Under the pieces are notes generated by a model, which worked only from the letters and a program-made list of their open reading frames with translations, made no database searches and was not told the origin of the DNA. Of a stretch of DNA of 64,000 bases, positions 10,438 through 64,000 are shown in pieces. A program made the position numbers and the translations under genes. Origin of the DNA: Dictyostelium discoideum (Eukaryota); contig CM000151.3 of NCBI GenBank assembly GCA_000004695.1, positions 1,472,001 to 1,536,000 of the forward strand. The letters are read 5' to 3'. Position 1 is the stretch's first letter, and each line of letters begins with the position of its first letter.

Positions 10438-10651
10438 TGTTTATATATATAAATTAATCTGAAAAATAAAAAAATTGTAAAAAAAAAAAAAAAAAAATGA
10501 AAAACGAAAAAAAAAAAATTAAAAAAAATAAAAAAATGAAAATAAAACAAAAAAAATGAAAATGAATAAAACCAAAGAAAATCAAAGAAAAAAAAAGAAA
10601 TTTTATTTTTATATTTGGTTTATTATTAATATTATTATTATCACTTTAAAT

Positions 10652-10685
<34 letters not shown>

Positions 10686-11406
10686 CCCATTTTTGGATTT
10701 TTATTTTGTTTATTATTATTTTTAATTAAAAAAAAAAAAAAAAAAAAAAGACATTCCAAATAAAAGGCAATGACCACCTCGAAAAAGACAAACTAGGAAA
10801 TAGAAATTTTCATTTTTTTTTTTTTTTTTTTTTTTTTTATTTTTTTCCAATACCCCAAACGGAATTAAAAATAAAAATTAAAAAAAAAAAAACAAATAAA
10901 ATAAGATAAATATTTTTTTTAAAAATTAAACACGTTGTTTTAATTCTTTTAAAAGAATATCTTGAACAATTTTGATTTTTTTATTTTTAAATTTTTTTTT
11001 TTTTTTATTTTTATTTTTTTTTTTTTTTATTTTAAAATTTTTTTTTATTATTTTTTTTTATTATTATTTTTTTTTTTCTTATCTTTATTACCAAATAAAA
11101 ATTTTAATATAATAAAGAATAAATAAAGGAAATAAAAAAAAATTAATAATAAATCAAAAAAAATAAAAAAATAATTAATTAATAAACAAAAAAATAAAAA
11201 AAATAAATAAAAATATAAAAATAAAAAAAAATAAAATAAAAATAAATAAATAAAAAAAAAAAAAAAAAAAAAATCAAAAAAAAATTTAAAATTTAATTTT
11301 TTTTTTTTTTTTTTTTTTTCGATTTTTTAAAATTTCTAAAATAAATACAAAATTAAAAAAAATATAAATAAAAACCTAATAGTATTAATAAATAATAATA
11401 AATAAA

Positions 11407-12594
<1,188 letters not shown>

Positions 12595-12626
12595 TTTTTT
12601 AATTTTTTTTTTTTAGGAAATTTTTT

Positions 12627-12660
<34 letters not shown>

Positions 12661-13979
12661 TTTAATTTTTATAATATTTGATAATAATAAATAATAAAAA
12701 ATCCATAATTAAATTATTGAATGTATAAACAAATAAAACATAATCCAACACGATATTTTTTTAAAAAACAAATTAAAATTTTAATGTTTTTTTTTTTATT
12801 TCCAAAAAATAATCTAAAGATATTTATTTTATTCTTTCAATGAAATAAACCTTTTTTTTTTTTTTTTTTTTTTTTTAATCTTGTTTAATTTATTTCCAAC
12901 CTATTTCGTTTAACTTTTTTTTTTTTTTTTTGATCCACTTGATGCAAACATTACGCAAGCCTTTTGTGTTGGCAGTTAATATCAAAAAATCTTAATTTTG
13001 GAAAAAAAAAAATTCTTTTTTTTTTTTCATTTTTTTATTTTTTTTATTTTTTTATTTTTTTATTTTTTTTTTTTTTTTTGTTTTTATTTTTATTTTCAAA
13101 CAATTTTAATTTTTTAAAGTTCTTATTTTTAATCAAATAAAAGTTGTAAAAATTGTATGTATAAATATTTTTTTATTTTTTTATTTTTTTTACTTTCAAA
13201 CTAAATTGTCGCAAAAAACAAAACAAAAAACAAAACTCAACATTTGGATGCTACGAATAAAAGATATTTAATAAAATTGATTTTATAAAAAAAATTTTAA
13301 AAATTAATAAAAAAAAAAAAAAAAATAAAAAAAAAAAAAAAAAAAAAATTTAAACACAAACCCCACTTTCAAAACAATACATTCTTTTTTATATTATTAT
13401 TTTTTTTTTTTTTTAAAAATTTTTCATAAATTTTCTTTTATTTTTTTTTTTTTTTCATTTTTTTTTTTTTTTAAATTAATTACATTGATTTTTCGTTGTA
13501 ACAAGATATATATTATAATAGTTCAAATTACTCAATTTTTAATATATTTTAAAAAAATAAAATAAAAAGCAAAAACTCAAAAAATAAAAAACTATAAAAA
13601 TAAAAAAAATAATAAAAATAAAAAATAAAAAATTCAAAAACAAAGAAAAAAAAAATATATTTTCATTGTCATACCTACCCATTCATTCAAAATTCTTTTA
13701 AAAGGAATCGAATCCTATATTAAAAGAAAAAATTATTATATTACTATAAAATAAAAAAGTGCAAAAAAAAAAAAAAAATAAAATAAAAGGGTAAATACTT
13801 AAACAATAAATCCACAGTCAACCACATACGTTTGATCAAAGGTTCTAAATTAAAATAATTTCCTTTCAAAAATCAAAAGTCAACCAAAAATATTTCAATT
13901 TTATTTTTCATTAATTTTTTTATTTTTTATTTTTTTTAAATTTTTAAATTTTTATTTTATTTTAGCCATTATTTATTTG

Positions 13980-13980
<1 letters not shown>

Positions 13981-14010
<30 letters not shown>
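13981..14010. repeat. (CA)14 / (TG)14 dinucleotide microsatellite in an intergenic AT desert.
   Basis: cacacacacacacacacacacacacaca is visible at 13981-14010. Confidence 0.9.
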
Positions 14011-14393
14011 CAGCATATAAATTAAACGTGTACATATAAACCAATATATCGTTTTAATTATTATTATAATTTCAATATTAAAACTACAAACCAATATTAA
14101 TAACTTAACTTTCATTATTTTTTTATATAAAACAAAAAAACAAAAAAAAAAAAAAAAAAAACAAAAAAAAAAAACAAATAAAAAAAACAAAAAAAATAAA
14201 ACATTACAAAATCAATACAGAACCAATTCACAAACCATTTTTTTTTTTTTTTTTTTTTTAATAATAAATTTTTATAGCAAGATCATCATCAAAAGTAATA
14301 GAAATAACGAGTGAGGAGCGAGACGAAAATAATAAATAAATAAATCAATCCACCCAAGGTAATATAATCTCAATAATTTAAATTTAATCATAT

Positions 14394-20699: not shown

Positions 20700-21961
20700 C
20701 AACAAAAATGCTAGTGGATTTCAAGTTATTAATTTAATGAGAACCAAAAGAGCAAGATACCCACTAAAAGTAGGGGGCTGGAACATTTGGAATATAGAAT
20801 TGAGACAACTGGCGCAGAAACTTTGGATCATAAACCAGTTCATCCTAGCACTAGAAACCAAACAAACAAACTCATCTCATCACAAAAGCTGGGAATATCA
20901 GATCCAAAAAAACAAATTCACATCCAGATACCTAAAAGAAAACTTAGACGAATGGAACAAAATAAGAATAAAAAAAGCAATTTTCAACAATAATCTCACA
21001 TCCATAAAAAACGAAAATGGACAACCACTTTCACTGGCAGAATGGTATACCACAATTCAAGACCAAAATCCACCATCCCTAAAACGGAATTCCAATCATC
21101 TCTAAACTTAAGAGGCTACAGCTATAATCAACTCTTCAACAACATACTGAAGATAAAAGACCCTAAAACAAGAGACACAATGTTTAGATTCCATGCCAGA
21201 TGCCTTCCAATAAACTACCTTCACAACAAACAATGCCCACTCTGCAAAGAAGATATGAGCAAAGACCCATACGGTCACCTGTTCTTCTCATGCAAGAAAA
21301 CAAAACAATTCATAAAAATAAATAAACTCAAAAATTTCATCTATATTACCACAGGCAAAGGTAAAAACTGGCACCATACAAGAATTAGGCAAAATAACAA
21401 TTTCATTAATAGAATAACTCCAAAATTATCACCGATAGCCAAAAAAGATCAAGAAGTGAATGCAGATTACGCCAACCACAGATTCCACAAAGAATACTTT
21501 GAATGGAACTATAAAGCAATAGACTATGATCTAACCAGATCATTCGCATATAGAAACCTAATGGCCCTTATCCTCCACAACATTTGGATTTGGATTTGCA
21601 ATCAAATATACAGTGAAGATCCTTTAACAAATGAATCACTATCATACAGCTCCCTTCTAAAGAAATGGCACAAATTGGCCACTCTAGAATACATCAAAAA
21701 AGCAAAAGATCTAAAAAACTTATCAGCAAAAGACCATAATAACTTCAAAGATCCTAAGATCCTTCTCACCTCAACGATCAAGCTAAGAAAAACAACAGCT
21801 AATTACTATTGTATTCCAGAATCATCTCTCCCAAATATTATATCTTTTGATCAATTCATATGATTAAAATAACCCTTCAGCTTAAATGATAAGCCTATAA
21901 ATAAATATTAAATAAAAACTCGTATTAACACAGATGGATATATATCAATCTTGTTAATCCA

Positions 21962-21994
<33 letters not shown>
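20700..21994 (+). mobile_element. 5'-truncated non-LTR retrotransposon remnant, TRE3-like and tRNA-gene-targeted. It retains the ORF2 C-terminal Cys motif, a 3' UTR and an oligo(A) tail, and starts ~110 bp downstream of the tRNA-Ile gene.
   Basis: The ORFs 20737..21105 and 21042..21863 overlap in different frames, which suggests a frameshifted degenerate ORF2. ORF 21042..21863 ends with CPLCKEDMSKDPYGHLFFSCKKTKQF, the CCHC-type motif found at the C-terminus of non-LTR ORF2 proteins. Base composition is GC-richer than the surrounding DNA. An A28 tail lies at 21967-21994. The position of ~100 bp 3' of a tRNA gene is characteristic of Dictyostelium TRE3 elements. Subfamily not determined. Confidence 0.6.
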
Positions 21995-21997
<3 letters not shown>

Positions 21998-22757
21998 ATC
22001 TGATAAAGAATTTTAAAATATTATATATTTTATTTTAAAATTCTTAATTAGATTATTTTAAAAAAATAATACTTGTATGACACAATATTTAAAAAAAAAA
22101 AAATAAAAAAAAAAATTGTATTATCTTATTTATACCAAATTTTTCTTTAACATTAAATAATTCAAATAAAAATCGACTCAATTAAAATAAAAAAAAAATT
22201 TTAGATAAATATTAAAAATAAAAAATAAAAAAACAAAACAAAACAAAATAATTAGCAAATTAGTAGTTATAAAATTTTGATATCTAACCCAATTTCGTTA
22301 CCAAATATATTTATAATTAATTAATTAATTTTTTTGACTTTTAATTTTAAAGCAAAAAGGAATTTTGAAGGACCGATTCATTAAAATTTAGAATATTAAA
22401 TTTTTTTTTTATTCTGAAGTATAATAATAAAAATAATATAGATACCCCCCTACCTCTAACTGAAAAAATAAAATAAAATCTATAAATAGTGGTAAGTATC
22501 TAATTTAAGCAAAGATTAATTAATAAAGTTTAGGTATTTTTTTCGGATTTTTTTTCTCTTTTAAAAAAGTAGAAAAAAAAAAAAAAATCTAAAATCTACT
22601 TGTTTAAATTTGTCATTGACCAATGATATAAAAACATAGATATTTTTAAATTTCTTTTACTTCAAAAACTTGTATTAATTTGAAATAAAATTTAATATAC
22701 TAACAAAATTTTTTTTTCTGAGTGAATAATTTAAAGAAAAAAAAAGTTTAAAAAATC

Positions 22758-31261: not shown

Positions 31262-31628
31262 GAAACTAATCTTAAAAAAAAAAAAATGTTAATGAAAATA
31301 AAAAATGAATTTAAAAAATGTGTGTGATTCCACTATGAAATTAATTAAAAATAATAAAAAAAAAAAAATAATAAAAAAATTGAAAAAAAAAAAAATAAAA
31401 AATAAAAATTTAAAAAAAATAAAATTTTTAATTAGAAGAAAACAAGAAAAAAAAAAAAATTAAAAAAAAATAATTAAAAATAAAAAAAAAAATGAAAATG
31501 AAAAAAAAAAGATTTTCTTTTTTTTTTTTTTGATTGATTAATATTAAATTTTATTTTTTTTATTTTATTTTTTTTTTTTATTTTATTTTTTCAATTTTTT
31601 TTTTATTTTTTTTTTATTTTATTTCTTT

Positions 31629-46014: not shown

Positions 46015-46513
46015 ATTAAAAAATAATAATAATAAATCAAAATCAAAATCAAAATCAATCAAAATCAAAATCGAAATCAAAAATTATTAAAATAATAACT
46101 ATAATAATAATGAAAGTAATAATATTTTATAAAAATAAAAATAATTATAATGTTATAAAAAAAAAAAATAAAAAAAAAATATCTTTTTTTGGTAAAATTT
46201 TTTTTCTTTTTTTTTTTAATTTAAAATAATAATAATAATATTAATAATAATAAAATAATAAACAAAAATAGAAATAAGTAAATAAAAAAAAAAAAAAAAA
46301 AAAAAATTAAATAAATCATTCTGTGTGTGTGTATGTGTGTGTGTTTTTTTTATTTTATTATTTATTTTTTATTTTTATTTTTATTATTTTTTTTTTCCTT
46401 TTTTTTTTTTCCTTTTTTTTTTATTATCATTTATTTTTTCAAACAAAATTAAACACATCACACAACAAAAAAAAAAAAAGTTTATTTTCAAATTAAAACA
46501 AATAATTAAAAGA

Positions 46514-60190: not shown

Positions 60191-61510
60191 TTAAAATAAT
60201 CTTGGATCATTTTTTCTTTCCCAAACAGGGTAACGATTACGATTACAATTATAAAACCATGGTAAAATTGCAACTTCTTTTTTAAAGAAATCATCCATAC
60301 TACTTAATTGACGAATTCTATGAGCATGATCAGATTTTGTTTCTAATAGACGAAGTTCTAATTTTTGAATATCACCTTTTCCAATATCATTTGAAAATAA
60401 GGTAATTTGATCCTCTCTTGTTATACCACATTCAGTACATGATAAATATTTCACCATTTGGAATGGTAAATAACCATAATGAGTCATATGCATTCCACCC
60501 AACATATAGTGACCTGAAGTACCACGATTTCTAGATGGTGCTTTAGTTGTTGATTTTGCTTTTTTTATTGTATAATAAGTTGGATCACCGAGTGTGTATG
60601 GATTACTTGGTACTGGGAAATCTGGATTGAAAACTTGATTAATTGGACCATATGGGAACCAAATACCAATATCAACCATATCAACACCTGATTTTAATTG
60701 ACAATTCTTTAATAAATGTAAATTAATTCTTGCACTGATTTCATCGGTATCGCCAAACCCGATAATATCCTCATCACTATATAGATTTGTTCTTTTATTC
60801 CAATCTAAAAACTTTTGCCAACGACGAGTTTCCTGATAACTTTCTGCATCGAATAAACCTTTACCATTCTCTTCATCAGTATCATCCAAAACTAAATGCA
60901 CCACTTTATCCTTGAATTTTAAAAATCTATCTTGAAATTTAACATGTTCCCAAATTAATGGTTTCAACATTTTATGATAATGTGTTACTGTTGACTCTAT
61001 TATAAAGAAATGGTCAACGACATCGTATAACTCATTTAAATGAATTTCTAAAACATCAACATCGAAACCAATTTGTACCATGTGTCCGATTTTAACAGGT
61101 TTATCACGTTTACCTGAAAACACTCTTGAATATTTTGATGTGCATACTGAATCGTCGATAGGTGGTAATGGTTCAGGTTGACATGATTCATCTATTGGTA
61201 CTAAAGGTGGTTCAATTAAGTAGGTTGATAATGTTAAAATCAACATTTGTGAATATTTATCTGTATTGTCTGTTTTACCAGTTCTTGCTGCTGCTTTAAA
61301 TTCTTCCCATGGGAAGTTATTCATATCATATGTAAAATTCTTTCCTTTTGCTTCATAATCTATATCTGCTATTGAAAATTTTGATTTAGGTCTATAATAA
61401 CTTATTCCACTACTATATACAATTTGATTTATGCTTGGAATAAAATATATCATTAAGGTTAATATACCTAAACCTATAAAAACTAATAACCAAATTCTAG
61501 TACGATTCAT
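60191..61510 (-). CDS. GT17-family glycosyltransferase paralog 4, with a short stem and no PT repeats.
   Basis: The N-terminal TM is MNRTRIWLLVFIGLGILTLMIYFI. The conserved core carries DVDVLEIHLNELYDVVDHFFIIESTVTHYHKMLKPLIWEHVKFQDRFLKF..GFGDTDEISARINLHLLKNCQ.. and the C-terminal CNRNRYPVWERKNDPRLF shared by all four paralogs. Confidence 0.7.
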   Translation of the reverse strand: MNRTRIWLLVFIGLGILTLMIYFIPSINQIVYSSGISYYRPKSKFSIADIDYEAKGKNFTYDMNNFPWEEFKAAARTGKTDNTDKYSQMLILTLSTYLIEPPLVPIDESCQPEPLPPIDDSVCTSKYSRVFSGKRDKPVKIGHMVQIGFDVDVLEIHLNELYDVVDHFFIIESTVTHYHKMLKPLIWEHVKFQDRFLKFKDKVVHLVLDDTDEENGKGLFDAESYQETRRWQKFLDWNKRTNLYSDEDIIGFGDTDEISARINLHLLKNCQLKSGVDMVDIGIWFPYGPINQVFNPDFPVPSNPYTLGDPTYYTIKKAKSTTKAPSRNRGTSGHYMLGGMHMTHYGYLPFQMVKYLSCTECGITREDQITLFSNDIGKGDIQKLELRLLETKSDHAHRIRQLSSMDDFFKKEVAILPWFYNCNRNRYPVWERKNDPRLF

Positions 61511-61601
61511 ATTTATTTATTTATTTATTTATTACAATTATATATTTCATTAGTGTTCTATTAATTTAGATATTAATAAAAAAAAAAAAAAATTGGATTA
61601 G

Positions 61602-61646
<45 letters not shown>

Positions 61647-61816
61647 TCAACCGATCGACTATCCGAAATTAACCATTTTGTTTTTTCACACAAATAATTA
61701 CCAGATATTTTTAAAAAAAAGAAAAAGTTGGTATTAAAAAAAAAAAAAAAATAAAAAAAAAATTAAAATTAAAATTAAACAAAAATAAACCGTAAAAATT
61801 TAATACTGACGTAAAT

Positions 61817-61857
<41 letters not shown>

Positions 61858-61901
61858 TTTTAGTTTTCTAAAGAAAATTCAAATAAAAAAGACGTGTTCA
61901 A

Positions 61902-62360
61902 ATGAAAATTATTAATTATCAAGAGTGTCATCAAAAAGATCTTAAAAAACTTTCATATGAATGGTTAGAAAAATATGTTTCAATTGAACCAATCGATGAA
62001 GAGATGTTGAATAATCCAAAGAGTTTTATTTTAGATGGTGGTGGTCATATATTTATGGCACAACACGGTGAACATAATGAAACTGTAGGAACTGTCTCTT
62101 TAATACAAGTTGATGATAAAACTTTTGAATTAGCAAAATTAGCAGTCACTGAAAAATATCAAGGTTTAAAATTAGGTCAACATTTAATGGAACACTGTTT
62201 AAATGTTGCTAAACAACAAGGTGCAACTAAAGTTATTTTATATACAAATCAAAAATTAACAAAAGCAATTGGATTGTATAAAAAATTCGGATTCATTGAA
62301 ATACCATTAAATAATAATAAATATATAGAATCAGATTTAAAAATGGAATTATTATTTTAA
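61902..62360 (+). CDS. GNAT-family N-acetyltransferase, single exon, 152 aa.
   Basis: The acetyl-CoA-binding motif A is ..YQGLKLGQHLMEHCLNVAKQQGATKVILYTN.. (Q/R-x-x-G-x-G/A pattern), and the overall length and pattern fit small GNAT enzymes (..FMAQHGEHNETVGTVSLIQVDDKTFELAKLAV..). There is no intron, and it is compact relative to neighbouring genes. Confidence 0.65.
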   Translation: MKIINYQECHQKDLKKLSYEWLEKYVSIEPIDEEMLNNPKSFILDGGGHIFMAQHGEHNETVGTVSLIQVDDKTFELAKLAVTEKYQGLKLGQHLMEHCLNVAKQQGATKVILYTNQKLTKAIGLYKKFGFIEIPLNNNKYIESDLKMELLF

Positions 62361-62941
62361 ATTTATTTTATTAAAATATTATTATTTTTATTATTATTAA
62401 TATTATTCTTTTTTTTTTTTTCAAAAATTCTGCTTAACTTTTCTACAAACATTTGAATTTAGTGTGGTGCATGTCTGGATAAAAAAAAAAAAAATTTTCA
62501 AAAAAAAAAAAAAAGCGTTCCACAAGAACCACCCTTTTTTTTTTTTTGTCTTTTTTTCTCATATCAATTTTAACAATATCATTAGTTATTAAAATATGAT
62601 TTATAATTCTTTTTTTTTTTTTTTTTTGAAAAAAAAAATTCTCCAATCACAAATCTATAAATTATATTAATAAAAACCAAAAAAAAAAAAAAAAGTTCAA
62701 GCAAAGTGTGGTATGCAGGTAAAAATTTAAAAGAAAAAAAAAAAATTTAAAATCTTGCTTAACTTGTTTTTCTGAAAAAAAATATTTGCCAACCACAATT
62801 CCAAAAACATATTAATTTTTTACTACAAATCTATAAATTATATAAATAAAAAAAAAAAAAAAAAAAAAAGTATCCCCTCAAACAAAAACAATAATAATGA
62901 AAATAAAAAATTTAACCACCTAACACCATATTTCATATCAT

Positions 62942-62993
62942 AAAAAAAATTAACACCCTCATTTACTAGTAAATGAGGGTGTTAATTTTTTTT
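62942..62993. repeat. Perfect 52-bp palindrome, A8-TTAACACCCTCATTTACT|AGTAAATGAGGGTGTTAA-T8.
   Basis: The reverse complement of 62942-62967 equals 62968-62993 exactly, centred on ACTAGT. It sits in the intergenic region ~430 bp upstream of the PKS start at 63421. Confidence 0.9.
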
Positions 62994-63420
62994 ATTTTAA
63001 ATCATCACAAAAACAAACCAAAAAAAATAATTTTACACCAAAAATAATAAAAAAGAATATTAATAATGAAAATAATAACCGCTAAATAATTAAATTTGTA
63101 TATAAATTGGTTTTGTTTTTTTTTTTAAATCATTATTTTATATATATATTTTCGCTTACTCAATAACCAGTATTTAAATATTGAAAAGTTTTAATAATTT
63201 ACACAGAAAAACTATCACCAATCAATAATAAAATCATTCGCATCAATTAAAGAATAAATTATAACATAACTTTTTTCTTTTTTTTTTTTTTTTATTTTTT
63301 AAAATATTTTTCATCCACACTCCATTTTCATCCACCAATTTCCATTTTTAAAAAAATAAAAGAAAATTTTCTGGAAGAATAAAACGCTAATAATTTTTTT
63401 TTTTTCTACATATATATATA

Positions 63421-63963
63421 ATGAATATTAAATTAAATAATAATGATCAATATAGTGACAGAGATGTTGCAATTATTGGTATTGGCTTTAGGTTACCAGG
63501 TAATAGTAATCGTGGAACAGAATTATGGCAAAATTTATTGAATGGATTTGATGGTATCGTTGAAACATCTGATAGATGGTCAGATTCTTTTAAAGATTTA
63601 GGTGAAATTCATTGTAAAGATGCCGGTTTAGTAGAGTTGGAGGATTGGGAGTCCTTTGATCCAATTCATTTTGGTATTAATCCTGCCGAAGCTAAACAAA
63701 TTGATCCACAACAAAAACTATTATTAAAATCAACATGGGAAGCTTTTGAAGATGCTGGAATTGATCCATTATCATTACGTGGTACATATACAAGTGTATT
63801 CGTTGGAGCATCTTCTTCTGATTATTCAACATCAATGGCAGAGAATTATGAAAAGCCAAACTTTAATGTTTTCAATTCAACAACTGGTAGTATTGCAAAT
63901 AGAATATCATATTGTTTTGATTTTCGAGGTCCATCATTAACTGTCGATACTGCATGTTCAAGT
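63421..63963 (+). CDS. Type I polyketide synthase, 5' exon (KS domain N-terminus). It is apparently intact and continues beyond the window after a GTAAGT intron starting at 63964.
   Basis: MNIKLNNNDQYSDRDVAIIGIGFRLPGNSNRGTELWQNLLNGFDGIVETSDRW..FDPIHFGINPAEAKQIDPQQKLLLKSTWEAFEDAGIDPLSLRGTYTSVFVGASSSDY..CFDFRGPSLTVDTACSS, then gtaagtatttc. It is colinear with, and in frame across, the region that is disrupted in the pseudogene at 22758. Confidence 0.8.
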
Positions 63964-64000
63964 AAGTATTTCTTTTTTTTTTTTCTTTTTTAAAAAGGAA

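Follow-up and report, generated by a model that had tools for sequence, protein, structure and literature searches.

The window analysed here is a 64,000-nucleotide stretch of Dictyostelium discoideum AX4 chromosome 2. It contains a long perfect palindrome in the 1060-bp intergenic region (62361–63420) between the gene for a GCN5-related N-acetyltransferase (GNAT) and a polyketide synthase (PKS) gene (Table 1). The palindrome lies 579 bp past the GNAT stop at 62360 and 425 bp short of the PKS ATG at 63421, close to the ~430 bp given in the original prediction. There is no open reading frame of note in the intergenic region. The downstream PKS is roughly 3000 amino acids long, and a protein search with its exon 1 returned three short fragments as the sole matches. 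Immediately upstream of the GNAT gene are four tandem paralogues of glycosyltransferase family 17 (PF04724; 50912–61510, minus strand), which are ~86–88% identical in DNA and form an array kept in all of the assemblies compared below (8/8).

The palindrome was first described as a perfect 52-bp inverted repeat in AT-rich intergenic DNA (62942–62993) with the letters A8-TTAACACCCTCATTTACT|AGTAAATGAGGGTGTTAA-T8. This description is accurate and slightly understated; an inverted-repeat finder shows that the symmetry runs two bases further on each side (AT...AT), such that the palindrome is perfect over 28+28 = 56 bp (62940–62995) with zero spacer and ends at the mismatched pair c62939/t62996.

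Table 1. Features of the GNAT–PKS intergenic region and the adjoining genes, in window coordinates.
Feature	Coordinates	Strand	Remarks
GCN5-related N-acetyltransferase (GNAT), upstream gene	61902–62360	+	ORF identical to AX4 XP_645233 / Q559V1
Extra CCCTCA box GTATCCCCTCAAAC	62875–62880	+	75 bp upstream; conserved in L003
Tandem repeat unit 1 TAACACCATATTTCATATCATAAAAAAAAT	62921–62950	+	Unit 2 begins at 62951, TAACACCCTCATTTACTAG...; two-unit layout also in L006
Perfect 56-bp palindrome, no spacer	62940–62995	.	Repeat finder; identical copy in L001 at 11035–11090
Left arm ATAAAAAAAATTAACACCCTCATTTACT, 6 C, 0 G	62940–62967	+	Fits local C-rich strand; unit 2 of local ~30-bp tandem repeat
A8 tract, outer left arm	62942–62949	+	Present as A5–A6 in L003 and L006
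C-box core CACCC of left arm	62954–62958	+	Offset from conserved flank CATATCATAAAAA equals that of L006 C-box TTTAGACCC
Symmetry centre ACTAGT	62965–62970	.	Predicted 4-nt hairpin loop CTAG
Right arm AGTAAATGAGGGTGTTAATTTTTTTTAT, 6 G, 0 C	62968–62995	+	Compositional outlier on + strand
G-box core GGGTG of right arm	62977–62981	+	GGGTGTTAAT vs GGGGGATAAT, 8/10
T8 tract, outer right arm	62986–62993	+	
PKS exon 1, ketoacyl-synthase N-terminus	63421–63968	+	Splice donor GTAAGT at 63969

The palindrome is real, non-random and far beyond chance, and the early judgement that a chance origin is highly improbable is upheld by two comparisons that agree. The longest perfect arm with at least three G/C is 11 nt in 60 locally shuffled windows vs the 28 nt observed, and in 207 kb of Dictyostelium DNA (the 64-kb window plus seven orthologous or related ~20-kb loci totalling 143 kb) the runner-up among perfect inverted repeats with spacers of up to 6 nt has arms of 16 nt, all A/T. 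A search of the 64-kb window for the 18-nt arm with up to three mismatches finds the two arms only (0.09 expected), and the window has no second copy of the 28-bp core (0 expected). The strong hairpin or cruciform potential that had been foreseen is also evident in computed folds: the single strand is predicted to form a 26-bp stem with a 4-nt loop, with a free energy of -24.4 kcal/mol as DNA (z = -11.4) and -30.8 kcal/mol as RNA (z = -10.4; -0.55 kcal/mol/nt). A separate long 'inverted repeat' at 31439–31589 was rejected as just an A-rich run beside a T-rich run.

The two arms differ in how they fit their surroundings. A ~30-bp tandem repeat (TAACACC... at 62921 and 62951), also present in L006, one of the orthologous loci, supplies the left arm as its second unit, and the arm follows the C-rich bias of the + strand; for both reasons it is probably largely ancestral. 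The C:G count of the + strand is 16:1 in the 69 nt left of the palindrome and 52:19 in the 425 nt to its right, and G makes up 6 of the 28 nt of the right arm vs ~4% of the flanking + strand. Across the PKS promoter (62871–63420) the coding-strand C:G count outside the palindrome is about 68:20, and the CACC/CCAC boxes at 62914, 62922, 63036, 63216, 63315 and 63332 are in a single orientation throughout. Three copies of CCCTCA cluster within ~100 bp at the palindrome, though the hexamer is not enriched in the window as a whole (7 found vs 6.4 expected). The distal intergenic DNA (62420–62870) contains scrambled local duplications, possibly repeated promoter modules; these include a pair of G-rich boxes (AGTGTGGTGCATG at 62461 and AGTGTGGTATGCAGG at 62705), a second duplicated pair (TTCTGCTTAACTT at 62428 and TCTTGCTTAACTT at 62752), and ACAAATCTATAAATTATAT...A-run at 62649, repeated at 62825 with 93% identity.

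Orthologous loci were obtained from seven further assemblies through the GNAT protein cluster. L001, L003 and L006 are labelled D. discoideum, L004 is D. cf. discoideum, L005 is D. dimigraforme, and L002 and L007 are D. citrinum. The 56 bp are unchanged in L001, which is 21 substitutions in 12.2 kb (0.17% divergence) away from AX4 and so an independent isolate; an assembly or cloning artefact is thereby excluded. The other six loci (L002–L007) have no convincing match to the arm 18-mer with up to four substitutions; the sole arm-like match, a weak one with four mismatches, lies inside the L007 PKS gene. Among the eight assemblies compared, the palindrome is restricted to the AX4-type lineage (AX4 and L001).

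This distribution bears on several readings of the palindrome, one of which is a transcribed RNA hairpin that would either be cut by Dicer (DrnB) into small RNAs or serve as a structural part of a noncoding RNA. The modelled -0.55 kcal/mol/nt easily passes the -0.2 kcal/mol/nt cut-off applied to D. discoideum miRNA precursors, and most miRNA loci of this species are intergenic (PMC6161686), yet the described precursors are longer and imperfect, unlike this perfect 26-bp stem with its 4-nt loop, the flanking structure does not lengthen the hairpin, and the hairpin is not conserved in strains or species beyond AX4 and L001. The arm, as DNA or RNA, has no match in the full-text literature searched, and the arm sequences have none in the searched supplementary tables of two D. 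discoideum miRNA surveys. Rfam matches over 61500–64000 at permissive E-values (ohsC and several mir families) were rejected as shape-driven; all are sub-threshold, the best, ohsC, scoring 29 bits vs a gathering score of 50. A functional RNA hairpin is thus highly improbable.

Next to no probability attaches to a bidirectional intrinsic (bacterial-type) terminator, an assembly or cloning artefact, or chance. The A8-stem-T8 layout does fit a terminator-like pattern on both strands, of which the scan found 5 sites vs 0.1 in shuffles, but the locus is nuclear and eukaryotic, where intrinsic termination is inapplicable, and G-C pairs account for only ~5 of the 20 counted in the stem. Artefact is countered by the identical sequence in a different isolate, and chance by the shuffles and the 207 kb of real background. 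The 28-bp core has no exact match in GTDB genomes, JGI metagenomes or IMG/VR, collections without Dictyostelium, which disfavours a bacterial or viral origin.

At the GNAT–PKS locus L003 and L006 are 5–10% divergent from AX4, which suggests that the assemblies labelled D. discoideum include cryptic species or very old haplotypes. The eight orthologous promoters, aligned with MAFFT, have a mean column identity of 51% and are essentially unalignable between species, and the informative loci for alignment of the site are L003 and L006. The intact PKS coding sequences of these two are 96–98% identical to AX4 and their promoters 70–78%; this contrast, together with the partial PKS copies, marks the region as structurally and mutationally very dynamic. 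In the eight assemblies the GNAT and PKS genes are 0.94–3.8 kb apart. Between the GNAT gene and the intact PKS gene, L003 has a partial duplicate of the PKS 5′ end with a truncated promoter (10460–12960; 94–97% identical to AX4 exon 1), and L006 has a KS fragment and a C-terminal reductase fragment (10460–14183). The notion that AX4 represents a deletion junction between two tandem PKS genes was dropped on coding identities, the intact PKS genes of L003 and L006 (96–98%) being as close to AX4 as the L003 fragment (94–97%).

In the BLAST comparison of AX4 with L003, homology ends at window position 62953 and restarts at 62989. A dedicated alignment shows that the last 78 nt of the left flank are 75/78 identical to L003 and that identity collapses exactly at the A-tract/TTAA edge of the palindrome; the positional copy in L003 is deleted or rearranged from this edge onward. 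L006 aligns across the site with ~69% identity over the region. In the global alignment AX4 TTAACACCC pairs with L006 TTTAGACCC directly after the conserved CATATCATAAAAA, the central AX4 TCATTTACTAGTAAATGA pairs with L006 TCATATCTTGATAAATCA (12/18 identical), and AX4 GGGTGTTAAT pairs with L006 GGGGGATAAT (8/10 identical) directly before the conserved ATTTT[CA]AATCATC. The G-box GGGGGATAAT precedes ATTTT[CA]AATCATC in L003 as well as in L006. L006 has 11 + 37 extra nucleotides at the site, and its boxes are ~65–75 nt apart vs 18 in AX4.

A survey of G/C runs finds a C-box and then a G-box between -340 and -465 from the PKS ATG in AX4, L006 and L004, with a distance of 40–75 nt between the boxes in L006 and L004, and G-boxes at similar promoter positions in L003 and L005. 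The sequence and arrangement of these recurring G-boxes (TTGGGGGAT, TTGGGTGG) and C-boxes differ from AX4. L004 has an imperfect 18-nt inverted repeat (83%) in the same zone. Because L006 and L004 have boxes 40–75 nt apart, the spaced, imperfect C-box/G-box state appears, on short alignments in low-complexity DNA, to be ancestral and the compact perfect palindrome to be derived, and because L003 and L006 share the A8 tract as A5–A6, this tract is ancestral too. L006 has a perfect 14-bp AT-rich palindrome of its own (TCAAATTAATTTGA, followed by T9) at 13761–13774, inside the interval matching the AX4 palindrome, and the G-box regions of L003 and L006 include the mini-palindromes GGATAA..TTATCC and GGATAATATCC. 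The zone seems prone to inverted-repeat formation.

The same alignments bear on the proposal that the palindrome is the terminal inverted repeat of a tiny foldback element, or more generally the remnant or miniature form of a DNA transposon with a 28-bp terminal inverted repeat pair (CACCCTCATTTACT/AGTAAATGAGGGTG) and a piggyBac-type TTAA duplication. TTAA does lie on either side of the 28-bp core, homology with L003 stops near the core, and only AX4 and L001 have the core. TTAA is self-complementary, however, and its presence on both sides within a palindrome is automatic; moreover, the symmetry goes 10 nt past TTAA (A8 + AT), so that a 24-bp palindrome would have had to be there already and to be hit precisely at its centre by the insertion. 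There is no independent target-site duplication, the TATC and TTTA beyond 62940 and 62995 not being direct repeats. In the window plus 143 kb (207 kb in all) no further copy or half-copy was found save the weak four-mismatch match in the L007 PKS gene. L006 lacks the palindrome yet has a C-box equally far from the left flank, and L003 and L006 have different sequence at the site, a clean empty site (ATAAAAAAAATTAATTTTTTTTAT) being found in neither. The DNA transposon families described in D. discoideum are Tdd, DDT and thug, with no piggyBac or MITE mentioned in that account (PMC5633606). The palindrome resembles MITE and foldback transposons in consisting entirely of inverted repeat, in being non-coding and in its TTAA flanks, and differs from these and from thug, Tdd and DDT in being single copy in 207 kb, in extending its symmetry into the 'flanks' and in being partly homologous to haplotypes without a palindrome. 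The foldback proposal finds no support in the 207 kb compared, and a transposon origin of any kind is very unlikely.

The palindrome is most probably evolutionarily young and arose in place in the PKS promoter region. The best explanation, with a probability of roughly 0.55, is a lineage-specific template-switch or fold-back event that perfected an older imperfect inverted repeat and collapsed its spacer. Template switching and quasi-palindrome correction are well established (Ripley, Lovett). Three findings are those expected of such an event: all bases of one arm (28/28) are the reverse complement of the sequence directly beside it, with zero spacer; the palindrome occurs in a single lineage (AX4 and L001) with flanks collinear with those of relatives; and the right arm breaks the local strand composition. 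With C exceeding G in the flanks, a G-rich right arm is the outlier that reverse-complement copying is expected to leave, and the right arm is the probable product or target of such copying.

The mechanism, copying direction and consequences that we infer from the observed palindrome, its uniqueness and its distribution can be outlined as follows. The ancestral promoter would have held two boxes 40–75 nt apart, a C-rich one just inside the conserved left flank and a G-rich one just inside the conserved right flank, which together made a loose, imperfect inverted repeat. In the AX4 lineage a template switch during replication or repair (fold-back, or 'quasi-palindrome correction') would have allowed one arm to template the other, leaving 28 nt per side exactly complementary and eliminating the spacer. 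One consequence would be a second, inverted copy of the C-rich motif CACCCTCA ~450 bp ahead of the PKS gene, with a possible modest effect on transcription-factor occupancy. A cruciform with a 26-bp stem could also extrude in this AT-rich, easily melted DNA, making the palindrome a potential fragile site. The palindrome as such likely has no conserved function.

Several points weaken the template-switch reading. No haplotype near AX4 keeps an unambiguous pre-event state, and the boxes are aligned through short motifs in AT-rich DNA of low complexity. The AX4 T8-ATTT can alternatively be set against the L006 T9-ATTT, which would make the AX4 G-box nothing but a copy, and both arms are about equally like L006 (about 68–71%) and so favour neither direction of copying. 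A spacer-less product needs copying through the centre, which is less typical than arm correction. The opposite polarity, with an ancestral palindrome that degraded in the other lineages, is a less probable alternative.

Template switching that homogenises or expands imperfect inverted repeats is frequent in yeast promoters and can change expression (PMC13100816). The Dictyostelium palindrome is similar to these yeast promoter repeats in being a strain-specific perfect repeat <1 kb upstream of a gene whose relatives have imperfect or spaced versions, in having an arm that is the exact reverse complement of its neighbour, and in overlapping a putative transcription-factor motif. It differs from simple arm correction in being larger, at 56 bp without a spacer and with the probable loss of one of 40–75 nt. 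Unlike in the yeast cases, the ancestral repeat is weakly reconstructable, the nearest haplotypes being 20–30% divergent in AT-rich DNA. If the template-switch reading is right, the locus offers a clean social-amoeba example of template switching building long perfect promoter palindromes, set in a secondary-metabolite (PKS) region that is structurally hypervariable between isolates, and a concrete case of cis-regulatory turnover between AX4-type and other wild haplotypes. Most probably the instance is new and the mutational process already known, and the palindrome represents neither a new kind of element nor a conserved regulatory code.

The C- and G-boxes also invite a regulatory interpretation, and the original prediction likened CACCC/GGGTG to elements bound by developmental transcription factors and suggested a site for a dimeric factor. 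In Dictyostelium the GBF element of post-aggregative genes is (T/G)G(T/G)G(T/G)G(T/G) and is usually paired (PMC2257962). GGGTGT/ACACCC fits 6/7 of its positions (arm AGGGTGT), so that a resemblance stands, but there is no strict match in the intergenic region; a strict KGKGKGK scan gives 55 sites in the window and none in 62361–63420. Simple KGKGKGK counts are inflated, as many matches are supplied by (TG)n/(CA)n microsatellites, which lie at 13983–14011 and 46322–46344. The palindrome is like GBF G-boxes and CA-rich elements in having G/C-rich boxes in an AT-rich promoter with two half-sites close together, and unlike them in that the boxes are exact inverted copies inside 28-nt arms and lack a strict match.

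A selected symmetric site through which a dimeric or two-half-site developmental factor (GBF-like or PKS-specific) would control the PKS gene is, on balance, unlikely. The position ~450 bp upstream of the PKS ATG is a typical place for regulatory elements, orthologous PKS promoters also have C-box/G-box pairs between about -340 and -465, and the three clustered CCCTCA copies and the resemblance to GBF elements point the same way, as do TATAACCCCCTCATATTC in D. citrinum L007 (13/17 identical) and AATAACCCCTTCATATC in L002, both of which resemble the left arm. The dimeric site is at best weakly backed: the boxes recur in relatives, but the palindromic arrangement itself is absent from the haplotypes and species compared beyond AX4 and L001. 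Furthermore, no factor reads anything like 28 matched bases per arm, A8/T8 among them. Identity of the 56 bp in both carriers is uninformative on selection because the carriers differ by 0.17%.

The C-rich half-site taken singly may be a genuine PKS-promoter motif, since C- and G-boxes and left-arm-like motifs recur in relatives; TAAC[AC]CCCTCAT, which resembles the left arm, occurs in D. citrinum promoters. The half-site may accordingly be read as a promoter element that was duplicated in inverted orientation. The related motif ATAACCC(C)(C)T(T)CA is found upstream of the D. citrinum PKS genes (L007 12456–12473, at -228; L002 11889–11905, at -177) and at 21866–21885 of the window, ~900 bp upstream of a second PKS-like gene; it is possibly a shared PKS-promoter motif, with modest statistics.

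Strong instability in eukaryotes is usually reported for palindromes at least as long as this 56-bp one. The one described here differs from unstable palindromes in that its 56 bp are stable between two isolates (AX4 and L001), and is similar to the short cruciform-forming fragile sites described in a review (PMC7999016) in being perfect and spacer-less in easily melted AT-rich DNA. The breakpoint of structural variation in L003 coincides with the left edge of the palindrome. A lineage novelty with consequences, in which the inverted CACCCTCA doubled by the template switch rewires developmental expression of the PKS gene in NC4/AX4-type strains or in which the palindrome acts as a fragile site, is decidedly doubtful. 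If true, the symmetric cis-element would set PKS expression apart from that in other wild D. discoideum lineages, and a fragile palindrome may seed deletions and partial duplications in the PKS region of other haplotypes. Studies of cruciform formation and palindrome stability would find in it a defined 56-bp substrate set in an extremely AT-rich genome.

The window contains a second spacer-less quasi-palindrome at 21992–22059, which has no sequence similarity to that at 62940. Its 34-nt arms are 82% complementary and include inner perfect 14-nt arms (AAGAATTTTAAAAT/ATTTTAAAATTCTT), and it is situated ~700 bp upstream of the other, divergent PKS-like gene, in which PKS homology begins at ~22785.
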